Notes under the pieces: generated by a model
What the model was told of the DNA's origin: nothing
The model's input: only the letters and a program-made list of their open reading frames with translations
Database searches by the model: none
Shown here: positions 22,447-64,000 of the stretch, in pieces
Layout of the letters: each line of letters starts with the position of its first letter
Position numbering within the stretch: the first letter of the stretch is position 1
Sequence record: KM606994
Reading direction: 5' to 3' (one strand)
From: Escherichia phage RB3
DNA: 64,000 bases
Made by a program: the position numbers and the translations under genes

Positions 22447-22500
22447 TCCTCATGTTATGTCAGTAAGTCTACTATAACACAACACGAGGGACTTGTAAAC
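22447..22500 (-). repeat. 54-bp early promoter/leader cassette, copy A
   Basis: Hand alignment: 52 of 54 nt identical to 37922-37975. Confidence 0.85.
22471..22500 (-). promoter_or_regulatory. Early-type promoter (GTTTAC -35, TATAGT -10) upstream of alt.-3
   Basis: GTTTAC-18 nt-TATAGT on minus strand; part of a 54-bp repeat. Confidence 0.6.
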
Positions 22501-24557
22501 TACATTTTGAACTTTTTAGACATTCCGTTGATGTTAACCAAAGAAGCTAATATTTGAGAAACTTCGTTTTCCTCTTCTTTTGATTCTTCTACAAGGAATT
22601 GATTAAATCCAGCCATTGGACGAACTTCACCAGTTTCCATTAAATGGTCTCCATCATATACTGATTCTTCTAATTGTTCAGAAGGAGGAACGATTGTACC
22701 TTCGATTAGATACTTGTTATAAGCAGTTTCTTTCATAAAGTACGTACTTACTTTATTAATCTTCAGTAAAATTCCGCGCGGTAGAATAACTTCAGCTTCT
22801 GATGGAAATCCTGATAAATGACCTGGAACGATAACTTTGATTCGCTCAGCTCCTTTAATTACCATACCCACGCTAGTTTCAGCATCTTCATTAGCATATG
22901 TAGAATGACTACCCATATGCATCAAATCTTCTGCATCAACGGAACCTTCTCCTTCACCAGAAAATACTGCGCCGGAATCATCTAGAGCCATATAGTTTTT
23001 ACCATGCTCACCGAAGATATTTGGTTTAAGCGATGTGGATACGAAGTTCTTGAAATAGAACATTTTGTTTTCAATGTTATGACGCAAAGTTTTAAAGGTA
23101 ACTTCTTGTCCACGATAAAGCGTAGTTCCTGGAGGAAGAACTGAACCTTTAGCGAATGCAGAATCAAGCGTCTCAATATGTTTAATAGCTCGTTCCATAT
23201 ATTCTTCACGGGTAGAATCTGGTTTACCCAAAAGGAACGAGTTCATTTCAACATATGAATCTGCACAATAATCTTCAATTACATCAGATTCAGCTTGAGT
23301 TAATCCTTTTGGAGTTACTTCGGTGCTTGCGTATTCATATGCCTGGGCAGCAGATTCATTAATCAATTTATAAATGCCATTCATGACAAATTGAATAATA
23401 GCTGTCTTTTCATCTGGCGTAGCTTTAGAACCTTTAACTAAATCATTAATAATTTTCTTAATAACATCAAAGCTATTAGAAATATTAATGTCAGCAAGAT
23501 CGCTTAAAATTTTATCAGTTTTATAATCAAAGAATTCTTTATTCTTTAAATATTCTTGAGAACCTTGATACGATATATCGCTCTGCAACTTGATAGATGG
23601 ATCACGTAAACGTGCATGGGCTAATGCAATATGATTTCGGAAACTTTCTAGTTCATAATCGTTAGATTTAAAACGAGAAGCACTTCTCATACCACCGATA
23701 GCTCCTTTGCCGAAGTTTGAACCAATCTGAATAACGCCAGAGTTCATTGGTCCTTCTGCTTTATATACCGGAACTTTAGATTCAAACTCTTGATATTTCT
23801 TGGCAGCGAAGCTATCACCCTGAAGTGAAGCATCGACAGTAGAATATTGAGCTTGTGCTGCTAATCGACGACTAATTTTAGTTTTTTGAATAACAGCTTG
23901 ATCCGTGCGCTTATCATTTTCTAAAGCAATAGAAGCAGCAACAGCGACAGCTTTAGGAACAGCATTACCTGTTTTAACATCTACATAAACATCACCGACC
24001 TTTGATTCAACTTTTGTGAATAACTCAGTTGAAATAGGAGGTACACCTGGAATGTCTTCTAAATTGGCATTTTTACGGTAAACCATAATATATGCATACT
24101 TTTTATCATAGTCCCAGATTTCCTTTAAAAGAACATATCGACCTGCTCCTTTAGTACGTACTAAACGGTCAGCAATAACTTGCATTTGACGAGCAGCGCC
24201 ATTTGTTTTACTTTTTAGTACGCGGAATAGGCATGCGTCAATTTTATACTGTTTCATTGTTTGAAGAGCAGTATCAAAAACAGCATTAATGACGCCAATT
24301 GGATTTCCACCCAAGTTTCTAAGCTTAACCAGCGATAATTTCTCGTTGACACCTATCATTACGATATGCATCATTTTATCGCCTGGCTTAACGTTTTTAT
24401 TCGTATCACCACCAGAGGTGTATGTACAAAATCTAAATCCAGGAAGCACGCTTTCTTCGCCGGCTTGAATAGCAAAAATTTGTGGTATTTTATGCTTAGG
24501 ATTTAAGTTAACAACCGGCGCCGAAGCGCCGTCAAATAATTCTGTAATAAGTTCCAT
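22500..24557 (-). CDS. Alt-like ADP-ribosyltransferase paralogue (downstream copy)
   Basis: 685 aa; N-terminus MELITELFD... close to the upstream copy; R-S-E ART motifs (LYRGQ, FVSTSL, EAEVILPRG); start 3 nt after the upstream copy's stop. Confidence 0.8.
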   Translation of the reverse strand: MELITELFDGASAPVVNLNPKHKIPQIFAIQAGEESVLPGFRFCTYTSGGDTNKNVKPGDKMMHIVMIGVNEKLSLVKLRNLGGNPIGVINAVFDTALQTMKQYKIDACLFRVLKSKTNGAARQMQVIADRLVRTKGAGRYVLLKEIWDYDKKYAYIMVYRKNANLEDIPGVPPISTELFTKVESKVGDVYVDVKTGNAVPKAVAVAASIALENDKRTDQAVIQKTKISRRLAAQAQYSTVDASLQGDSFAAKKYQEFESKVPVYKAEGPMNSGVIQIGSNFGKGAIGGMRSASRFKSNDYELESFRNHIALAHARLRDPSIKLQSDISYQGSQEYLKNKEFFDYKTDKILSDLADINISNSFDVIKKIINDLVKGSKATPDEKTAIIQFVMNGIYKLINESAAQAYEYASTEVTPKGLTQAESDVIEDYCADSYVEMNSFLLGKPDSTREEYMERAIKHIETLDSAFAKGSVLPPGTTLYRGQEVTFKTLRHNIENKMFYFKNFVSTSLKPNIFGEHGKNYMALDDSGAVFSGEGEGSVDAEDLMHMGSHSTYANEDAETSVGMVIKGAERIKVIVPGHLSGFPSEAEVILPRGILLKINKVSTYFMKETAYNKYLIEGTIVPPSEQLEESVYDGDHLMETGEVRPMAGFNQFLVEESKEEENEVSQILASLVNINGMSKKFKM

Positions 24558-40096: not shown

Positions 40097-41187
40097 CGTT
40101 ATGTTCGATTGAGCTCGCTAATTCTCAACCCGTTCTCTTATGAACTGCTACATATTACTATGCAGACCAGACTATATCACAATCCCAGAGGGATTCTCCC
40201 CATTTCGAGTCGCTTGACCCTACGTCCGAAGACTAGTCGTTGAACCTTGCTTTGCAATTGTCGCCGTGCCATCGTTTATATGTTGATGGTGATAAATCTT
40301 TCTTATCACAATATGGACAATTCAATTGAATTCTATTTGGATTTAATTTACATCTGTCATTATGTTTTAGATAAAATCCAGGACCTTTACCAATGTGACC
40401 GCAGAAATCACATGTGATTTCTTTTTGTGCAGGATGGGTCCCGTTCTTAACCATTTCTAATGTTTTTGCTGATGTTCTTTTCTTATGGTCTTCTGACAAG
40501 AAATGATGTGAACCGTCATTTACCCGTTTTGATTGAGTTTCTGACTGCATTTTACCACCGCAAAATACATGAGTACCTTCTTTTATAGCTGCAATATTGC
40601 GTTCTTTAACTTTTGCAATATGCTCAGCTTGTTGAAAATTATGTATACCTAATGCAACTCTATTTAAATTAGATTTACGCTGTATTTCACCGTCTAAAAG
40701 ATGAAATGTACCATTTTCTATCTTAGATTTAATAGAGGCAATATTTTTAGCTCGTACTTCAGGGATATTAAAAATCTGGATTTCTCTAGATTTTGCGGCT
40801 TTAGAAGCTAATTCAGAAATTTCTTCAGGAGAATATTTCATTCTAAGCTTTATAGCATGACAAGCCTGGTAATCTTTTTGAGCTAAATGTATATCATAAT
40901 GTTCCTGTATAGAAAGGCACATCAAATTATCTAAATCATTATTTTCACGGTTACCGTCTTTATGATGGATTTCGTCTGTTCTTCCATCAGAATCTTTAGG
41001 TATAGGTCCGTTAGCATCTATCCAAATTTTTCTATAGTTCAATTGTGCATCCTCTTAAAAGTATAATCATATTTATATTATACTAATTAAAGGTGCAAGC
41101 AAAACCTTGGCTGCTAGTTTTCCTATAAAGGACTTTCCAGCAATTAAAGGAGTTTTCGATAAACGTTACCGTTTAAAGGCGCATTTT
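40097..41187 (-). mobile_element. Group I self-splicing intron in nrdB, about 1.09 kb, carrying I-TevIII
   Basis: Interrupts nrdB between FYVSFA and CTFNFHK; 3' core shares GTAGGGTCAAGYGACTCGAAA and GATATAGTCTG with the td intron; boundaries inferred, +/- a few nt. Confidence 0.8.
40233..41042 (-). CDS. Intron-encoded HNH homing endonuclease I-TevIII, full length
   Basis: 269 aa; HNH motif (EIHHKDGNRENNDLDNLMCLSIQEHYDIH); inside nrdB intron. Confidence 0.85.
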   Translation of the reverse strand: MNYRKIWIDANGPIPKDSDGRTDEIHHKDGNRENNDLDNLMCLSIQEHYDIHLAQKDYQACHAIKLRMKYSPEEISELASKAAKSREIQIFNIPEVRAKNIASIKSKIENGTFHLLDGEIQRKSNLNRVALGIHNFQQAEHIAKVKERNIAAIKEGTHVFCGGKMQSETQSKRVNDGSHHFLSEDHKKRTSAKTLEMVKNGTHPAQKEITCDFCGHIGKGPGFYLKHNDRCKLNPNRIQLNCPYCDKKDLSPSTYKRWHGDNCKARFND

Positions 41188-56800: not shown

Positions 56801-57701
56801 TGATGAAACGTCTAATCACTTTTATTCTCAGCGCAATAAAGCTGGAAATATAACATTTAATATCAACGGTACAGTAACACCTATAAATGTTAATGCTTCA
56901 GGAACATTGAATGCAAATGGTGTAGCAACATTTGGTAATTCAGTCACTGCAACTGGTGAAATTATTTCTCGAAGCGCAAATGCTTTCCGTGCTATTAACG
57001 GAAATTATGGTTTCATTGTTCGCAATGATGGATCAGTAACGAATTTTATGCTTACTGCATCGGGTGATCAGACTGGCGGATTTAATGGATTACGTCCTTT
57101 AGCTATTAATAATGCATCTGGCCAAGTAACGATTGGTGAAAGCTTAATCATTGCAAAAGGTGCTACTATAAGTTCGGGTGGTTTGACTGTTAACTCGAGA
57201 ATTCGTTCTCAGGGTACTAAAACCTCTGATTTATATACCCGTGCGCCAACATCTGATACAGTAGGATTCTGGTCAATCGATATTAATGATTCAGCCACTT
57301 ATAACCAGTTTCCGGGTTATTTTAAAATGGTTGAAAAAACTAATGAAGTGACTGGACTTCCATACTTAGAACGTGGTGAAGAAGTTAAATCTCCTGGTAC
57401 ATTGACTCAGTTTGGTAACACACTTGATTCACTTTACCAAGATTGGATTACTTATCCAACGACCCCAGAAGCACGTACCACTCGCTGGACGCGTACATGG
57501 CAGAAAACTAAAAATTCTTGGTCAAGTTTTGTTCAGGTATTTGATGGAGGTAACCCTCCTCAACCTTCGGATATAGGAGCAATCCCATCTGATAATGGAA
57601 TAATAGGTAATCTTACTATTCGTGATTTCTTACGAATTGGTAATGTTCGCATTATTCCTGACCCAGTGAATAAAACTGTTAAATTTGAATGGGTTGAATA
57701 A
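53832..57701 (+). CDS. 34: Long tail fibre proximal subunit gp34
   Basis: 1289 aa; late promoter at 53790-53797. Confidence 0.93.
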   Translation: MAEIKRKFRAEDGLDAGGDKIINVALADRTVGTDGVNVDYLIQENTVQQYDPTRGYLKDFVIIYNNRFWAATDNIPKPAGNFNRIRWKALRTDAVYTTVSSGPYQLKSGEAISVDTSVGNDIEFTLPPSPLDGETVIIQDIGGKPGINQVKINSSNQSIVNFRGEQVRSVLMTHPKSQMVFIFNNRLWQMYIADYSREAAIVTPSTAYQAQSNDFIVRRFTSAAPINVKLPRFANHGDIINFVDLDKLNPLYHTIVTTYDETTSVQEVGTHSIEGRTSIDGFLMFDDNEKLWRLFDGDSKARLRIITTNSNIRPNEEVMVFGANNGTTQTIELQLPTDISVGDTVKISMNYMRKGQTVKIKAAGEDKIASSVQLLQFPKRSEYPPEAEWVTVQELVFNGETNYVPVLELAYIEDSDGKYWVVQQNVPTVERVDSLNDSTRARLGVIALATQAQANADLENSPQKELAITPETLANRTATETRRGIARIATTAQVNQDTTFSFADDIIITPKKLNERTATETRRGVAEIATQQETNTGTDDTTIITPKKLQARQGSESLSGIVTFVSTAGATPASSRELNGTNVYNKNTNNLVVSPKALDQYKATPTQQGAVILAVESEVIAGQSQEGWANAVVTPETLHKKTSTDGRIGLIEIATQSEVNTGTDYTRAVTPKTLNDRRATESLSGIAEIATQVEFDAGVDDTRISTPLKIKTRFNSTDRTSVVALSGLVESGTLWDHYTLNILEANETQRGTLRVATQVEAAAGTLDNVLITPKKLLGTKSTEAQEGVIKVATQSETVTGTSANTAVSPKNLKWIVQSEPTWAATTAVRGFVKTSSGSITFVGNDTVGSTQPLESYEKNSYAVSPYELNRVLANYLPLKAKAVDSNLLDGLDSSQFIRRDIAQTVNGSLTLTQQTNLSAPLVSSSTATFGGSVTANSVLTISNTGTETHLIFEKGPQTGTNQAQTVTIRVWGNQFSGESDTTRSTVFEVGDETSNHFYSQRNKAGNITFNINGTVTPINVNASGTLNANGVATFGNSVTATGEIISRSANAFRAINGNYGFIVRNDGSVTNFMLTASGDQTGGFNGLRPLAINNASGQVTIGESLIIAKGATISSGGLTVNSRIRSQGTKTSDLYTRAPTSDTVGFWSIDINDSATYNQFPGYFKMVEKTNEVTGLPYLERGEEVKSPGTLTQFGNTLDSLYQDWITYPTTPEARTTRWTRTWQKTKNSWSSFVQVFDGGNPPQPSDIGAIPSDNGIIGNLTIRDFLRIGNVRIIPDPVNKTVKFEWVE

Positions 57702-57709
57702 GAGGTATT

Positions 57710-58825
57710 ATGGAAAAATTTATGGCAGAGTTTGGACAAGGATATGTCCAAACGCCATTTTTATCGGAAAGCAATTCAGTAAGATATAAAATAAGCATAG
57801 CGGGTTCTTGCCCGCTTTCTACTGCGGGGCCATATGTTAAATTTCAGGATAATCCCGTTGGAAATCAAACATTTAGTGCAGGTCTTCATTTAAGAGTTTT
57901 TGACCCTTCTACAGGAGCATTAGTTGATAGTAAGTCATATGCTTTTTCTGCTTCAAACAATACAACATCTACCGCTTTTGTCAGTTTCATGAATTCTTTG
58001 TCAAACAATAGACTTGTTGCTATATTAACTAGCGGAAAGGTTAATTTTCCTCCTGAAGTGGTATCTTGGTTAAGGGGAGCAGGAACTTCAGTTTTTCCAT
58101 CAGATTCAGTATTGTCAAGATTTGACGTGTCATATGCTGCTTTTTACACTTCTTCTAAAAGAGCTATCGCATTAGAGCATGTTAAACTAAGTAATAGAAA
58201 AAGCACAGATGACTATCAAACTATGTTAGATGTTGTATTTGATAGTTTAGAAGACGTCGGAGCTACAGGATTTCCTAAAAGAACATACGAAAGCGTTGAG
58301 CAATTTATGTCTGCGGTTGGTGGAACTAATAACGAAATTGCGCGATTGCCAACTTCAGCTGCTATAAGTAAACTTTCTGACTACAATTTAATTCCTGGTG
58401 ATGTTCTTTATCTTAAAGCACAACTATATGCTGATGCTGATTTACTTGATCTTGGAACTGCAAATATATCTATTCGTTTTTATGATGCATCAAATGGATA
58501 TATTTCCTCGACCCAAGCTGAGTTTACTGGGCAAGCTGGGTCTTGGGAATTAAAAGAAGATTATGTAGTTGTTCCTGAAAATGCAGTAGGATTTACGATA
58601 TATGCACAAAGAACTGCCCAAGCAGGTCAAGGCGGCATGAGAAATTTAAGCTTTTCTGAAGTATCAAGAAATGGCGGAATTTCGAAACCTGCTGAATTTG
58701 GTGTCAATGGCATTCGTGTTAATTATATCGGTGAATCCTCTTCACCTCCAGATATAATGGTACTTCCTACACAGGCATCGTCTAAAACTGGTAAAGTGTT
58801 TGGACAGGAATTTAGAGAAGTTTAA
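57710..58825 (+). CDS. 35: Long tail fibre hinge protein gp35
   Basis: 371 aa; terminator downstream. Confidence 0.9.
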   Translation: MEKFMAEFGQGYVQTPFLSESNSVRYKISIAGSCPLSTAGPYVKFQDNPVGNQTFSAGLHLRVFDPSTGALVDSKSYAFSASNNTTSTAFVSFMNSLSNNRLVAILTSGKVNFPPEVVSWLRGAGTSVFPSDSVLSRFDVSYAAFYTSSKRAIALEHVKLSNRKSTDDYQTMLDVVFDSLEDVGATGFPKRTYESVEQFMSAVGGTNNEIARLPTSAAISKLSDYNLIPGDVLYLKAQLYADADLLDLGTANISIRFYDASNGYISSTQAEFTGQAGSWELKEDYVVVPENAVGFTIYAQRTAQAGQGGMRNLSFSEVSRNGGISKPAEFGVNGIRVNYIGESSSPPDIMVLPTQASSKTGKVFGQEFREV

Positions 58826-58831
58826 ACTGAG

Positions 58832-58855
58832 GGAGCCTTCGGGTTCCTTTTTTCT
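58832..58855 (+). terminator. Terminator after gene 35
   Basis: GGAGCC-UUCG-GGUUCC (one G-U pair) followed by TTTTTTC. Confidence 0.75.
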
Positions 58856-58856
58856 T

Positions 58857-58864
58857 TATAAATA
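58857..58864 (+). promoter_or_regulatory. Late promoter TATAAATA (gene 36)
   Basis: Exact TATAAATA after the gene 35 terminator. Confidence 0.7.
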
Positions 58865-58887
58865 ATATTAAAATAAAGGGGCATACA

Positions 58888-59538
58888 ATGGCTGATTTAA
58901 AAGTAGGTTCAACTGTTGGTGGATCTGTCATTTGGCATCAAGGAAATTTTCCATTGAATTCAGCCGGTGACGATGTACTCTACAAATCATTTAAAATATA
59001 TTCAGAATATAATAAACCGCAGGCAGCTGATAATGATTTCGTTTCTAAAGCTAATGGTGGTACTTACACCGGTCCAATTACTATTAATTACGGGGTAAAT
59101 AGTTATCTTCAATTAAGTAATAATGAAACCCCCATCCGAATTCGTTCTGGTGGCGGCACTGGTAATACTCTTGTAGTTGGTGGCTCTTCTGGCGGTATTA
59201 GTTTTAGACCAGCAGGTAGTGAAATCACTACTGGACAAATTACTATTACGCCAGAAGGTTTGACAACATTTACCAAAGCTGTAACGGCTCCATCTGTAAC
59301 TGTCACATCTACTCCTTCCGCAGCATCAGATGCTACTCGTAAAGATTATGTTGATGGAGCAATAAATACTGTTACAGCAAATGCAAACTCTAGGGTATTA
59401 CGCTCTGGAGACACTATGACAGGAAATTTAACTGCGCCAAACCTTTTTTCACAGAATCCTGCATCTCAACCTTCACACGTTCCACGATTTGACCAAATCG
59501 TAATTAAGGATTCTGTTCAAGATTTCGGCTATTATTAA
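58888..59538 (+). CDS. 36: Long tail fibre distal connector gp36
   Basis: 216 aa; late promoter at 58857-58864. Confidence 0.9.
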
Positions 59539-59546
59539 GAGGACTT

Positions 59547-62500
59547 ATGGCTACTTTAAAACAAATACAATTTAAAAGAAGCAAAACCGCAGGTCAACGT
59601 CCTGCTGCTTCAGTATTAGCCGAAGGTGAATTGGCTATAAACTTAAAAGATAAAACAATTTTCACAAAAGATGACTCAGGTAGTGTTATAGAATTAGGTT
59701 TAAAATATGGAGGAACAATTGATGGTTCTTTAACTGTTAATGGAAGCATAATTGGAAATTTAACAGGTAACGCTGCAACCGCAACGAAATTAAAAACAGC
59801 ACGAAAGATTAATGGTATATCTTTTGATGGGTCAAAGGACATTACCCTAACTCCATCTGACATAAATGTAAATAGTACAACATTTATAAAAAATAATGGT
59901 GAATTACCTACTGATGCTAATTTAGATACGTATGGGCCCATTGAAGAATATCTTGGTGTTTGGTCGAAATCTACTTCAACAAATGCGCAACCAGCAAATA
60001 AATTCCCAGAAGAAAATGCCGTAGGTGTACTAGAAGTATTTGTGGCCGGCCAATTTGCTGGCACTCAGCGTTATACTGTAAGATCTGGTAACGTCTATAT
60101 TCGTTCCTTATCTGCTAAATGGAATGGCGTCGATGGTCCATGGGGTCCGTGGCGCAATATTCAAACTGGCACACGCCCACTATCAACTACGCTAGACTTG
60201 AATACTTTAGGTGATGCTTCTCATTTTGGGTTATGGCGAAATAGTTCAAGTTCCATTGCATCATTTTCTCGAAATTACCCAGAAGAAGGTGGTCTCGCGC
60301 AAGGTCTTTTAGAAATTTATGAAGGTGGTAACTATTCTCGCACGCAACGTTATACTACCCGAATGGGTGTTGTATATGTTCGTTGTCTTGCTAGTGCATG
60401 GGATCCAGAAGCTCCGAATTGGGGACCGTGGCAACAAGTAGGTATGGTTACTCCAAACACATTCTATGACGGGGATCTTAATAATTTTCGTTCTCCTGGC
60501 TTGTATAACATTTTAGGGACTGATGCCGTTATTAACCGTCCAGTTGCAGAAGGTGTTCCGGTTGAGATGACCGGATTGCTTGAGGTTAAACAGCGTGCTT
60601 CCGGTGGCGCTATTTTCCAACGTTTCACTACCGCAGGAACGGGTGCAACTACGCGATCTCGCGTGTTTGAACGTGCGATGACAAATAACATCTGGGGAAA
60701 TTGGTACGAAGTATATACGTCCTATTCTATGCCGATCACTCTGGGTATGGGTGGTGTTAAATCTCAATTAGCGGAGCTAGACTGGCAAACCTTTGATTTT
60801 GTCCCTGGTAGTATGTTTAGTGTTCCTTTGAACAAAATAAAGAACATGCCAGCAAATATGGATTGGGGTGCGATTGACGGAAACTTGGTTATGTTTTCTG
60901 TCGGTCCTAGCGAACACACTAGCACAGGGCGTACTGTTCAGGTTTGGCGTGGTACTGTATCCCAGACAAACTACCGTTATTTTGTCGTTCGTGTGTTCGG
61001 TAATTCTGGAAATATAACTTGTACAGTTCGACGCGTTGTTCTTGAAGATGGTAGCCACAAATGGACAGCGCAACAAGATTTTAATGGTGCAGTTAACTTC
61101 GGTGCTCCTACCAATTTTAACTCTACTGTTAACCTTAATAACACTACCACATTTAAAACAGAAGTTAAATTCCGCTCGTTGAATGCATTCCGTATGTATG
61201 GCGGAAAATTTGGTGCATTTTTACGTAATGATGGAGAGAGTCTTTATATTCTTTCCACCGACGAAAATGATCAAGATGGAAACTTTAATACAAATAGACC
61301 TTTCCGTTATGAATTAAGAACTGGTGATGTTACTTTGGGTGGTACTAGTGGTGCTAACGTTTTAAAATTAAAACGTGATTCTCTCACCGCATTTTTTGGT
61401 GGTGATATTAACATGAAAGGCTTGATGACTTTTGACGCCGGGCGTTTAGGATCACGAGATTATTTTAAATTTAACCATTGGGGTGATAGTAATAATGGTC
61501 GTGATAACATCATTCAGTTAGAAGATAGTCAAGGCGCTCATTTTTCCACTGAACGTACTTTAGCGACAGGTGCAATTAAAACTCGTTTCTTTGGCGAAAC
61601 ATTCACTGATGGTACATTATACCTAAATCAGATGAATAATAGTTCTGAACGATTCTCTATTAATAATTGGGGAAATTCAGAAGTTGGTCGCCCGGCAGTG
61701 TTGGAAGTCGGTGATTCTAAAGGTTATCACTTCTATACGGAACGCAGGACAGATAACAGTTTGATGTTTGATGTTGCTGGCGATTTTACTGCGCATGGAC
61801 CTTCCGGGATTACTATCAAAACCTCTACTGGTGCTCGCCATATCTGGTTTAGAGATGATAGCGATGCAGAAAAGGCTGTTATCTGGGCTACAGATGAGGG
61901 TATTTTACATATACGAAATAATCATGGTGGTTCATTTAGTCATCACTTCCAGGGTGCAATGATTAAAGCGGGAGAGCGTGTTCCTTATGCCGGAGATCAA
62001 GGGCTTATTCGCGGTGAAGTTTCTGGTGGTGCTTATGTGAATTGGAGAGACCGCCCTGCTGGTTTGTTGCTTGACTGTCAACAAAGCGTTGATAGTGCTC
62101 ATGCTATTTGGAAAGCGGTTGATTGGGGGCGTAACTTCATCGCTGCTTTGGACGTTCATTGTCCCGGTGATAGTAATAATACTGCGGCAGCGATTCTCCA
62201 TGTTCAGTCTGCTGATTATCAATTCCATGCAAGTGGAGAATTTCATGCCACTGGTAACGGAAACTTTAACGATGTTTATATTCGATCAGACCGTCGCCTC
62301 AAAGAAAACATCGAAGATTATATAGGAAATGCGTTAAGTTTGATTGGCAAACTGAAAGTGAAAACTTACGATAAAGTTAAATCTCTTAAGGACCGTGAAA
62401 TTATCGGTCATGAGATCGGCATTATCGCACAGGATTTACAGGAAATATTACCAGAAGCTGTAAAATCTTCAAAGGTTGGCAATCTTGATAATCCAGACGA

Positions 62501-62639
62501 TGTTCTGACAATTTCTAACTCTGCTGTGAATGCTCTTTTAATTAAGGCTATTCAGGAAATGAGTGAAGAAATTAAAGAATTGAAAACGCCTCTCTTTACT
62601 AAAATTATTCGCAAAATTAGTAAATATTTTAAATTCTAA
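59547..62639 (+). CDS. 37: Long tail fibre distal subunit gp37 with C-terminal S74-like intramolecular chaperone domain
   Basis: 1030 aa; C-terminal [12 protein letters not shown]...(Ser914, last 117 aa) matches the autocleaving chaperone Ser/Lys motif. Confidence 0.9.
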
Positions 62640-62645
62640 CAACAA

Positions 62646-62663
62646 GGGGGAAATGCCCCCTTT
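62646..62663 (+). terminator. Hairpin/attenuator between genes 37 and 38
   Basis: GGGGG-AAATG-CCCCC followed by TTT, then gp38 SD. Confidence 0.5.
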
Positions 62664-62673
62664 GGAGAAAATT

Positions 62674-63456
62674 ATGGCAGTAGTTGGTGTTCCTGGTTGG
62701 ATTGGTAGTTCATCCGTAAATGAAACAGGACAACGATGGATGAGTCAAGCAGCTGGTCAATTAAGATTAGGTGTTCCTTGCTGGATGAGTCAATTTGCAG
62801 GTCGCTCAAGAGAAATTATTCATACACTTGGAGCAGACCATAACTTCAATGGTCAATGGTTCCGAGATAGGTGTTTTGAGGCAGGTAGTGCACCTATAGT
62901 GTTTAATATCACTGGAGATTTAGTATCATATTCTAAAGATGTTCCTTTATTCTTCATGTATGGAGATACACCGAATGAATATGTTCAGTTGAATATACAC
63001 GGCGTAACGATGTATGGACGTGGCGGTAATGGCGGTAGCAATAGTCCTGGTTCAGCTGGAGGTCATTGTATTCAAAACGATATTGGTGGGAGACTAAGAA
63101 TTAATAATGGTGGAGCTATTGCTGGAGGTGGCGGCGGTGGCGGCGGCGGATATTATTCTCCTTTTTCACAAATGAGATTGACTTTTGGAGGTGGCGGCGG
63201 GCGTCCGTTTGGCGCACCGGGCGGATCTATTGATATGCAATCAGGAGCAACTGCTGGTACTATTTCTGCGCCTGGCGCAGGGTCTGTGAACGGTATCTAT
63301 AGCGGCGGTGGCGGTGGCGAAGTTGGCTCCGCAGGAGGTAGATGTAATATTCGTGGTCAAGGATCTGAATACGATGGCGGAGCTGCTGGTTATGCCGTCA
63401 TAGGGTCTACACCGACATGGCAAAACGTTGGAGCAATATATGGTCCAAGAGTATAA
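62674..63456 (+). CDS. 38: gp38 receptor-binding adhesin, T2-type with glycine-rich motifs
   Basis: 260 aa from [13 protein letters not shown]; conserved N-terminal domain then poly-Gly motifs separating variable loops. Confidence 0.85.
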
Positions 63457-63486
63457 TTTGAATAAATATCCTTAAAAGGAGGGTCT

Positions 63487-64000
63487 ATGGCAGCACCTAG
63501 AATATCATTTTCGCCCTCTGATATTCTGTTGGGTGTTCTAGATCGCTTGTTCAAAGATAACGCTACCGGGAAGGTTCTTGCTTCCCGAGTAGCTGTCGTA
63601 ATTCTTTTATTTATGATGGCGATTGTTTGGTATAGGGGAGATAGTTTCTTTGAGTACTATAAGCAATCAAAGTATGAAACATACAGTGAAATTATTGAAA
63701 AGGAAAGAAATGCACGCTTTGAATCTGTCGTCCTGGAACAACTCCAGATAGTTCATATATCATCTGAGGCAGACTTTAGTGCGGTGTATTCTTTCCGCCC
63801 TAAAAACTTAAACTATTTTGTTGATATTATAGCATACGAAGGAAAATTACCTTCAACAATAAGTGAAAAATCACTTGGAGGATATCCTGTTGATAAAACT
63901 ATGGATGAATATACAGTTCATTTAAATGGACGTCATTATTATTCCAACTCAAAATTTGCTTTTTTACCAACTAAAAAGCCTACTCCCGAAATAAACTACA
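63487..64000 (+). CDS. t: Holin t, 5' partial (runs off window end)
   Basis: MAAPRISFSPSDILLGVLDRLFKDNATGKVLASR... with TM segment VAVVILLFMMAIVWY; no stop within window. Confidence 0.88.
   Translation, partial: MAAPRISFSPSDILLGVLDRLFKDNATGKVLASRVAVVILLFMMAIVWYRGDSFFEYYKQSKYETYSEIIEKERNARFESVVLEQLQIVHISSEADFSAVYSFRPKNLNYFVDIIAYEGKLPSTISEKSLGGYPVDKTMDEYTVHLNGRHYYSNSKFAFLPTKKPTPEINY

Follow-up and report, generated by a model that had tools for sequence, protein, structure and literature searches.

A T6-type tail fibre tip shared with phage RB5: gp37 with a predicted self-cleaving S74-type chaperone end and a Tsx-type gp38 adhesin

The tail fibre tip encoded in the window, i.e., the whole 64,000-nucleotide stretch of DNA analysed, very probably consists of a gp37 precursor processed via its S74-type C-terminus and of a T6-type gp38 adhesin binding Tsx (Table 1), and the sequence contains nothing that speaks against this reading. 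Over the stretches compared (1-50000 and 57001-64000), the window is 100% identical to RB5 (KM606995.1), in whose record the two genes are labeled as gene 37, "long tail fiber distal subunit" (RB5_245), and gene 38, "tail fiber adhesin" (RB5_246). Likewise, the tip region of RB6, RB7, RB9, and RB10 is identical to that of RB5 (1.5 kb compared). The RB5 tip is an ordinary module that has been annotated and tested before and is already known. Tips built from a gp37 chaperone and a gp38 adhesin are more common among T-even phages than any other arrangement, with structures solved for S16 and PP01, and the present findings have little significance beyond correct annotation, the RB5 receptor having been determined and the adhesin engineered in 2011.

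Table 1. Features of the gp37/gp38 region (positions refer to the window).
Feature	Position	Strand	Basis and remarks
gp37, long tail fibre distal subunit precursor	59547-62639	+	ORF, 1030 aa
Mature part of gp37 (residues 1-913)	59547-62285	+	ORF, RB5_245 annotation; predicted end of 11 residues
C-terminal intramolecular chaperone/auto-processing domain, Peptidase_S74 (residues 914-1030 plus stop)	62286-62639	+	Pfam PF13884; release after trimerisation predicted
Catalytic motif S914-D-R-R-L-K919, Ser/Lys dyad	62286-62303	+	Predicted scissile bond R913/S914
Intercistronic RNA hairpin AGGGGG-AAAUG-CCCCCU	62645-62661	+	Between gp37 stop and gp38 ribosome-binding site (GGAG 62664-62667)
gp38 tail fibre adhesin, 260 aa	62674-63456	+	Pfam, PDB matches, RB5_246 annotation
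gp38 N-terminal attachment domain (residues 1-42), W9/W22/W37	62674-62799	+	Gp38_N match; 8-protein alignment
gp38 C-terminal specificity domain (about residues 115-239)	63016-63390	+	Column conservation; GRM/HVS scheme of Trojet 2011

The reading frames with their coordinates, the gp37 end of 117 residues starting at Ser914 and the 260-residue, glycine-rich gp38, all described in an earlier note on this DNA, are borne out by ORF reading and Pfam. A 12-residue motif starts at Ser914 (codon at 62286), and the domain that it opens is the extreme C-terminus of the fibre subunit. Residues 914-973 match Peptidase_S74 over the complete model (positions 1-58 of 58, E 7e-15, 55.5 bits against a Pfam cutoff of 22 bits), and the domain can be aligned to the chaperone domain of S16 gp37 (6f45_A, E 4e-7) as well as to the ICA domain of MYRF (7dc3). 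Since the Ser-x4-Lys spacing is also present at the domain start (S914 and K919), the assignment of the gp37 C-terminus as an S74-type intramolecular chaperone with an intact dyad, likewise put forward earlier, is supported at the sequence level. Of seven gp37 sequences aligned, five reach the cleavage region (window, T6, T2, FL34, and Ec_O157kw), and all of these have the pattern VY[IV]RSDxR[LV]K. Moreover, the S16 site DLNVS^SDRRIKK aligns over DVYIR^SDRRLKE of the window, which puts the cut at R913^S914, and mature gp37 would therefore end with DVYIR. The end VYIRS given in the earlier note is off by one residue, as it is incompatible with a released piece starting at Ser914. Processing has been published for T2/T6 gp37 (for T2, proteolytic processing by Drexler et al., 1986) and for S16 gp37, and by homology with T2 and S16 the RB5 protein would likewise cleave itself between R913 and S914 and release the domain.

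For gp38, residues 47-260 match GP38 (PF05268, E 9e-71, 238.6 bits) and residues 1-42 match Gp38_N (PF21721, E 1e-19, 70.4 bits), each with a cutoff of 25 bits. As these scores and that of Peptidase_S74 are far above the cutoffs, the gp37/gp38 observation is not due to chance. Among the PDB matches are 9v85 (PP01 gp38, 7.7e-80) and 6f45_D (S16 gp38, 1.5e-49), adhesins of which the structures were determined in a complex containing the gp37 tip or OmpC. These matches support an assignment of gp38 to the adhesin type and not to the T4-type chaperone, as had already been proposed. A tblastn search with gp38 gave matches in 786 phage records, of which 77 reach an identity of at least 95%. Tryptophans W9, W22, and W37 are invariant in all eight diverse gp38 proteins aligned, and a role of the three N-terminal tryptophans in attachment has been described for S16. 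Glycine makes up 24% of gp38, with runs of nine, five, and five residues from positions 151, 172, and 211, respectively, and a polyglycine sandwich structure is known for S16 gp38. Conserved glycine-rich motifs (25 residues in addition to GGxGG and GGAAG) alternate with hypervariable segments at about 121-128 (SNSPGSAG), 160-171 (12 residues), about 185-211 (26 residues), and about 219-234 (16 residues), an order that fits the GRM/HVS scheme of Trojet (2011). Invariant in the eight proteins are GRGG(N)G, G152-G157, G172-G176 followed by RPFG, G212/G214/G215, and G239; for conservation at the extreme C-terminus, the corresponding stretch of the FL34 record was left out due to an aberrant end, probably a frameshift. 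RPFGAP, which the earlier note had listed as a variable loop, was misplaced there, because RPFG belongs to the invariant motif GGGGGRPFG, also present in S16 and PP01 gp38.

Regarding the receptor, gp38 is 93% identical to its counterpart in T6, with near-identical variable segments, and 97% to that of KarlGJung (BASEL). The adhesin is thus T6-type in sequence and receptor (Tsx), and the former label "T2-type" is suitable as a name of the general architecture only; taken literally it was rejected, the identity to T2 gp38 being 53% versus 93% to T6. Assignment of the receptor class by gp38 alignment, the check suggested with that label, gives Tsx and agrees with published experiments. In spot tests on Keio deletion strains, Tsx was established as the RB5 receptor (Trojet et al., 2011). 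In the same study, RB5 recombinants bearing the gp38 variable segments of RB32 gained the RB32 host range, placing specificity in a gp38 segment of about 400 bp, and nearly all Tsx binders had the same set of four variable segments. Hence, the location of host specificity in the variable segments of gp38, formerly deduced from its loops, is supported by published work on RB5 itself. KarlGJung and Paracelsus, the latter also with a 97% identical gp38, are reported as Tsx-dependent. Being readable from the gp38 variable segments, the receptor class is useful for phage cocktail design, and loss of tsx is the expected route to resistance.

An adhesin using another receptor or an additional one, such as OmpA, LPS, FadL or OmpF, is unlikely, even when considering that the specificity domain of RB5 differs from that of T6 by S166P, D188N, A195G, A200S, A204S, S211N, and G214N in the alignment. 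Three to four changes in variable segments 2 and 3 are sufficient for adding OmpA and Yersinia recognition in phage PST, and RB5-like phages plate on Yersinia at low frequency (Trojet, 2011). In addition, Yersinia phage fPS-65, with a 97% identical gp38, requires the LPS inner core; only LPS-heptose resistance mutants were obtained in this host, which lacks Tsx, so that in hosts besides E. coli an adhesin of this type can exploit different surface structures. Against a different receptor in RB5 stand its Tsx dependence on the Keio strains, the same dependence of KarlGJung and Paracelsus, and the segment set common to nearly all Tsx binders.

It is hardly credible that the role of gp38 is confined to that of an assembly chaperone, as it is for the T4 protein, with gp38 absent from virions and the receptor-binding site left to gp37. 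The gene does sit where T4 gene 38 does, and some records still call T6 gp38 "distal long tail fiber assembly catalyst", but the best BLASTP alignment to T4 gp38 comprises 12 residues at a non-significant E of 1.9, the strong matches are to adhesins solved with the gp37 tip or OmpC, gp37 does not retrieve a T4 gp37 chain from the PDB, and the RB5 host range shifts on exchange of the gp38 variable segments alone. Very unlikely, too, is that the S74-like domain is a degenerate chaperone that escapes cleavage and stays in the fibre tip permanently. Its first half (roughly 914-935) diverges from the T6 sequence, which would fit this reading; however, neither the Ser914/Lys919 dyad nor the DVYIR strand is disrupted, both are found in relatives with documented or inferred cleavage, and docking of gp38 in the S16 structure requires the surface lying under the chaperone domain.

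With a cleaved gp37 and a gp38 adhesin, the tip is very probably assembled as follows. Within the gp37 precursor of 1030 residues, the S74-type end would aid folding of the trimeric beta-helical tip. The Ser914/Lys919 dyad would then, as deduced from homologous proteins, cleave the R913-S914 bond, and departure of the domain would uncover the DVYIR tip. On the latter, going by the S16 structure, a single gp38 would dock via its N-terminal helical domain and the three tryptophans, one copy capping the gp37 trimer. Trojet (2011) regarded gp38 as apparently trimeric, while in the later crystal structure of the S16 complex, which shows gp38 physically at the tip, each gp37 trimer carries a single gp38. 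With its C-terminal half, gp38 very probably forms a polyglycine-II sandwich, the distal hypervariable loops of which bind Tsx, a nucleoside channel in the outer membrane of E. coli.

The gene order 36-37-38-t is common to the window, RB5, T6, T2, and KarlGJung, with the gp38 gene directly 3' of gene 37 and its predicted cleavable chaperone end and 5' of the holin gene t. As formerly noted, the module is unlike T4 and the window is T4-colinear outside the gp37/gp38 block. However, this block does not start at 62286 but at about 59681, i.e., around gp37 residue 46, and by extending to 63461 covers nearly all of gp37 plus gp38. In BLASTP, likeness to T4 gp37 is limited to the first 66 residues (79%), beyond which the matches are only two short repeat-like stretches. 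In the PDB, gp37 matches domains of the gp34 type and the tip of S16 gp37 but no T4 gp37 chain, and residues 506-587 match Gp34_trimer in Pfam. By BLASTP, neither gp38 nor the gp37 end shows homology to its T4 counterpart, the T4 gp38 chaperone and the T4 needle, respectively. The gp37 gene is a mosaic, being about 94% identical to T6 DNA at 59547-61598 and again T6-like from 62221, while for 61599-62220 a nucleotide match was obtained neither with T6 nor with KarlGJung, the two genomes compared. This segment is thus not T6-like, yet the upstream shaft and the downstream adhesin flanking it are. That these approximately 620 bp (residues ~685-892) represent an independently exchanged module with a role of its own, for example, a secondary LPS contact or tuning of gp38 presentation, is quite improbable; if true, fibres of the RB5 type would differ from T6 in host range despite the common Tsx adhesin.

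Translation of gp38 is assigned to the ATG at 62674, preceded by GGAG at a distance of 7-10 nt and used as start in the RB5 record. A 267-aa version from the in-frame ATG at 62653 was rejected on these grounds; all gp38 homologs compared start with MAV or MAI, which also counts against it. In the intercistronic region, a stem is kept at the same place in T6, KarlGJung, FL34, SG1, and T2 with differing stem and loop sequences (GAGGGC-UUCG-GCCCUC in T2). Stability of the hairpin in its 61-nt context compared to shuffles (z = -1.6) is not significant alone, and it is its conservation that suggests a real structure. A scan of 62200-63700 for sigma-70-type promoters and intrinsic terminators gave numbers of matches that did not exceed those of shuffled sequence; terminator-like matches in this region were on the minus strand only, at the intercistronic hairpin.

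Compared with known systems, T4 has its tip genes at the same genomic position and shares the first 66 gp37 residues, which join gp36. However, its gp38 is an unrelated assembly chaperone of 183 aa, its gp37 itself binds OmpC/LPS, and an S74 domain was not seen in T4 gp37 by BLASTP with the chaperone domain of the window. Endosialidase, T5 pb1, and MYRF domains (MEROPS S74, PF13884) have the same Ser-x4-Lys at the domain start and are located C-terminally of a trimeric beta-helix. Unlike in these proteins, release of the domain encoded in the window would expose a dock for a separate adhesin and not merely complete an enzyme or fibre. The (gp37)3-gp38 complex of Salmonella phage S16 (PDB 6F45), homologous over the whole gp38 and the gp37 tip/chaperone domain, is the structural model for self-cleavage before the serine of SDRR(I/L)K, tryptophan docking, the polyglycine-II sandwich, and distal variable loops. 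It differs from the window in its host and variable loops, in the strand preceding the cut (DLNVS versus DVYIR), and in the size of the released domain (113 versus 117 residues).

Among the T-even relatives, T2 shows the same architecture, its gp37 precursor combining an S74 domain with the VYIRSDxRLK site, and its gp38, about 260 aa long, having the three tryptophans and the glycine-rich motifs in common with the window. Its gp38, a FadL/OmpF adhesin, differs in the variable segments, the N-terminal subtype, and the receptor, its gp37 is 1341 aa long, and its chaperone domain is devoid of the 17-residue C-terminal tail found in the window. The closest system is T6, together with RB3/RB14/RB27 and the KarlGJung/Paracelsus variants, sharing the same four gp38 variable segments, the N-terminal attachment subtype, and Tsx as receptor. 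T6 and the window hardly differ in the second half of the gp37 chaperone domain. Differences from T6 are the length of gp37 (1030 versus 994 aa), about eight substitutions in the gp38 specificity domain, and the gp37 stretches that are not T6-like, i.e., residues ~685-892 and the first 20 or so chaperone residues. Over the C-terminal, approximately 180 aligned residues, gp37 is closer to the FL34-type tip (68% versus 58% for T6).

From the open reading frames near the end of the window, a long tail fibre distal subunit (gp37) followed directly by a glycine-rich adhesin (gp38) can be deduced, and the coordinates and counts of the earlier note for both are correct: the Ser914 codon of gp37 starts at 62286, with 117 residues from there to the stop. 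RB5 (KM606995.1) from position 95993 agrees base for base with the window where compared (1-50000 and 57001-64000), and the 1.5 kb around the tip are 100% identical to Enterobacteria phages RB5, RB6, RB7, RB9 and RB10. In the RB5 record, gene 37 is RB5_245 ("long tail fiber distal subunit") and gene 38 is RB5_246 ("tail fiber adhesin"); holin gene t comes next. A 267-aa gp38 from the in-frame ATG at 62653 is disfavoured, since GGAG lies 7-10 nt 5' of 62674, the compared homologues start with MAV or MAI and the RB5 record uses 62674. The intercistronic hairpin keeps its stem at the same site in T6, KarlGJung, FL34, SG1 and T2 with differing stem and loop sequences, the T2 version having a C(UUCG)G tetraloop. 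It presumably resembles the stable hairpins that have long been known between cistrons of T4 late transcripts.

Features of the tail fibre region and of two further loci, in window positions
Feature	Position	Strand	Remarks
alt.-2 (RB5_192)	22500-24557	-	2058 nt, full-length
I-TevIII	40233-41042	-	nrdB intron homing endonuclease, 810 nt
gp35 (hinge protein)	57710-58825	+	Pfam ILEI (interleukin-like EMT inducer / FAM3 fold), residues 58-112, 33.4 bits, cutoff 27
gp37	59547-62639	+	ORF, 1030 aa
Gp34_trimer (Pfam; C-terminal trimerisation domain of proximal subunit gp34)	61062-61307	+	gp37 506-587, E 5e-15
Segment unmatched in T6 and KarlGJung	61599-62220	+	gp37 ~685-892
Basic tail of chaperone domain	62586-62636	+	gp37 1014-1030
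GC-rich hairpin	62645-62661	+	between gp37 stop codon and gp38 ribosome-binding site
gp38	62674 (ATG)-63456 (stop codon end)	+	ORF, 260 aa

Pfam Peptidase_S74 ("chaperone of endosialidase") matches gp37 residues 914-973 over the complete model (1-58 of 58, 55.5 bits at a cutoff of 22 bits, E 7e-15). Among solved structures, the gp37 C-terminus aligns to 6f45_A, a fragment of S16 gp37 (E 4e-7; SDRRLK over SDRRIK), and to the MYRF auto-processing domain 7dc3. The Ser914/Lys919 dyad recurs, together with the DVYIR strand, in gp37 of T6, T2, FL34 and Ec_O157kw. In Salmonella phage S16, gp37 ends in an intramolecular chaperone of 113 residues, which cleaves itself off once trimerised; the cut separates the two serines in DLNVS^SDRRIKK, and the equivalent position in Tequatrovirus relatives is DVYIR^SDGRLK (PMC7917993). 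Proteolytic processing has also been described for T2 gp37 (Drexler et al. 1986). RB5 gp37 would be cut likewise at R913^S914, freeing the 117-residue domain and leaving a mature protein of 913 residues. As the released piece would start with Ser914, mature gp37 should end in ...DVYIR rather than in ...VYIRS as given earlier. A basic tail of 17 residues closes the chaperone domain in RB5-, T6- and FL34-type gp37, while the T2/slur02 type lacks it. Further upstream, the PDB matches of the Gp34_trimer region are the gp34 structures 4uxe and 5nxf; hence, this domain is common to proximal and distal half-fibres.

Two Pfam families cover gp38, Gp38_N at residues 1-42 (70.4 bits) and GP38 at 47-260 (238.6 bits, E 9e-71). 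Among solved structures, it matches the S16 receptor-recognition protein 6f45_D (E 1.5e-49) and the gp38 fusion protein 9v85 (E 7.7e-80), which we take to be the PP01 gp38 of PMC12892980. As judged from sequence comparison, the domain matches of gp37 and gp38 exceed chance. Glycine makes up 24% of gp38, with runs G9, G5 and G5 starting at residues 151, 172 and 211. Among eight diverse gp38 proteins, W9, W22, W37 and every glycine-rich motif are invariant, while the intervening segments vary (approximately 121-128, 160-171, 185-211 and 219-234). "RPFGAP" had been wrongly counted among the variable loops: all eight proteins have GGGGGRPFG unchanged, as do S16 and PP01. In the S16 crystal structure, the gp37 trimer carries one gp38, anchored via three tryptophans at the N-terminal helix tips. 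Behind the helices lies a beta-helix together with a polyglycine-II sandwich, and the variable segments form the distal loops of the sandwich (PMC6851490). Each RB5 fibre tip would thus bear one gp38. In gp38 of slur02 (L008, 301-1086), the N-terminal domain is T2-type but the variable segments are T6-type, which makes this protein a natural chimera across attachment and specificity domains.

The tip module differs from T4, as claimed, but the difference is not confined to 62286-63456: the largest T4 megablast gap in the window spans 59681-63461, nearly all of gp37 plus gp38. With T4 gp37 only the first 66 residues are in common (79%), and T4 gp38 (183 aa) shows no significant protein similarity to the window gp38. 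Elsewhere, the window is T4-colinear as stated earlier, from gene 19 through 34-36 (84% covered, mostly at 90-98.6% identity). Besides, RB5 has a full-length alt.-2 beside alt, whereas T4 has only the short fragments alt.-1/alt.-2, according to its record remnants of an alt duplication; most of the RB5 gene (22520-24209) lies inside a stretch without T4 megablast match. I-TevIII is truncated and defective in T4 (294 nt), mobE is longer than in T4 (732 versus 426 nt), and the RB5 stretch has no annotated segD, a gene that lies between 23 and 24 in T4.

Within gp37, DNA identity to T6 is 94% up to 61598 and 87% again from 62221, while the segment in between has no nucleotide match to T6 or KarlGJung. 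From these alignments, the segment looks like a module exchanged on its own, immediately 5' of the tip. The adjoining stretch 62000-62350 is common to only about 25 phage records, and many phages match only from about 62350 on, starting inside the chaperone domain. The C-terminal ~180 residues of gp37 are closer to those of phage FL34, whose adhesin is OmpF-type, than to those of T6 (68 versus 58%). Fibre-module shuffling is well described in T-even phages (PMC3157838, PMC7917993) and is not new, although a role not yet explored could lie only here.

The label "T2-type" holds as a generic name for the architecture but not for the adhesin class, as gp38 is 93% identical to that of T6 and only 53% to that of T2; identity to KarlGJung (Bas37) is 97%. 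The variable segments are almost those of T6, one of 12 residues corresponding to YYSPFPQMRLTF in T6 and one of 16 residues being identical. The receptor class, left to be assigned in the earlier note, is Tsx (T6 class) and already in the literature. PMC13353012 reports Tsx dependence for KarlGJung and Paracelsus, with Maffei et al. 2021 as source. RB5 itself was studied by Trojet et al. (2011; PMC3157838), who give Tsx as its receptor. RB5 recombinants that had taken up RB32 or RB33 variable segments were able to grow on a host resistant to RB5, and the smallest RB32 insert conferring the RB32 host range placed the specificity determinant in a segment of about 400 bp with all four variable segments. 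Overall, the observation of the tip is confirmed and its interpretation supported with the above corrections, and the feature is already known, being annotated in the RB5 genome, with homologues solved structurally and the RB5 receptor assigned experimentally.
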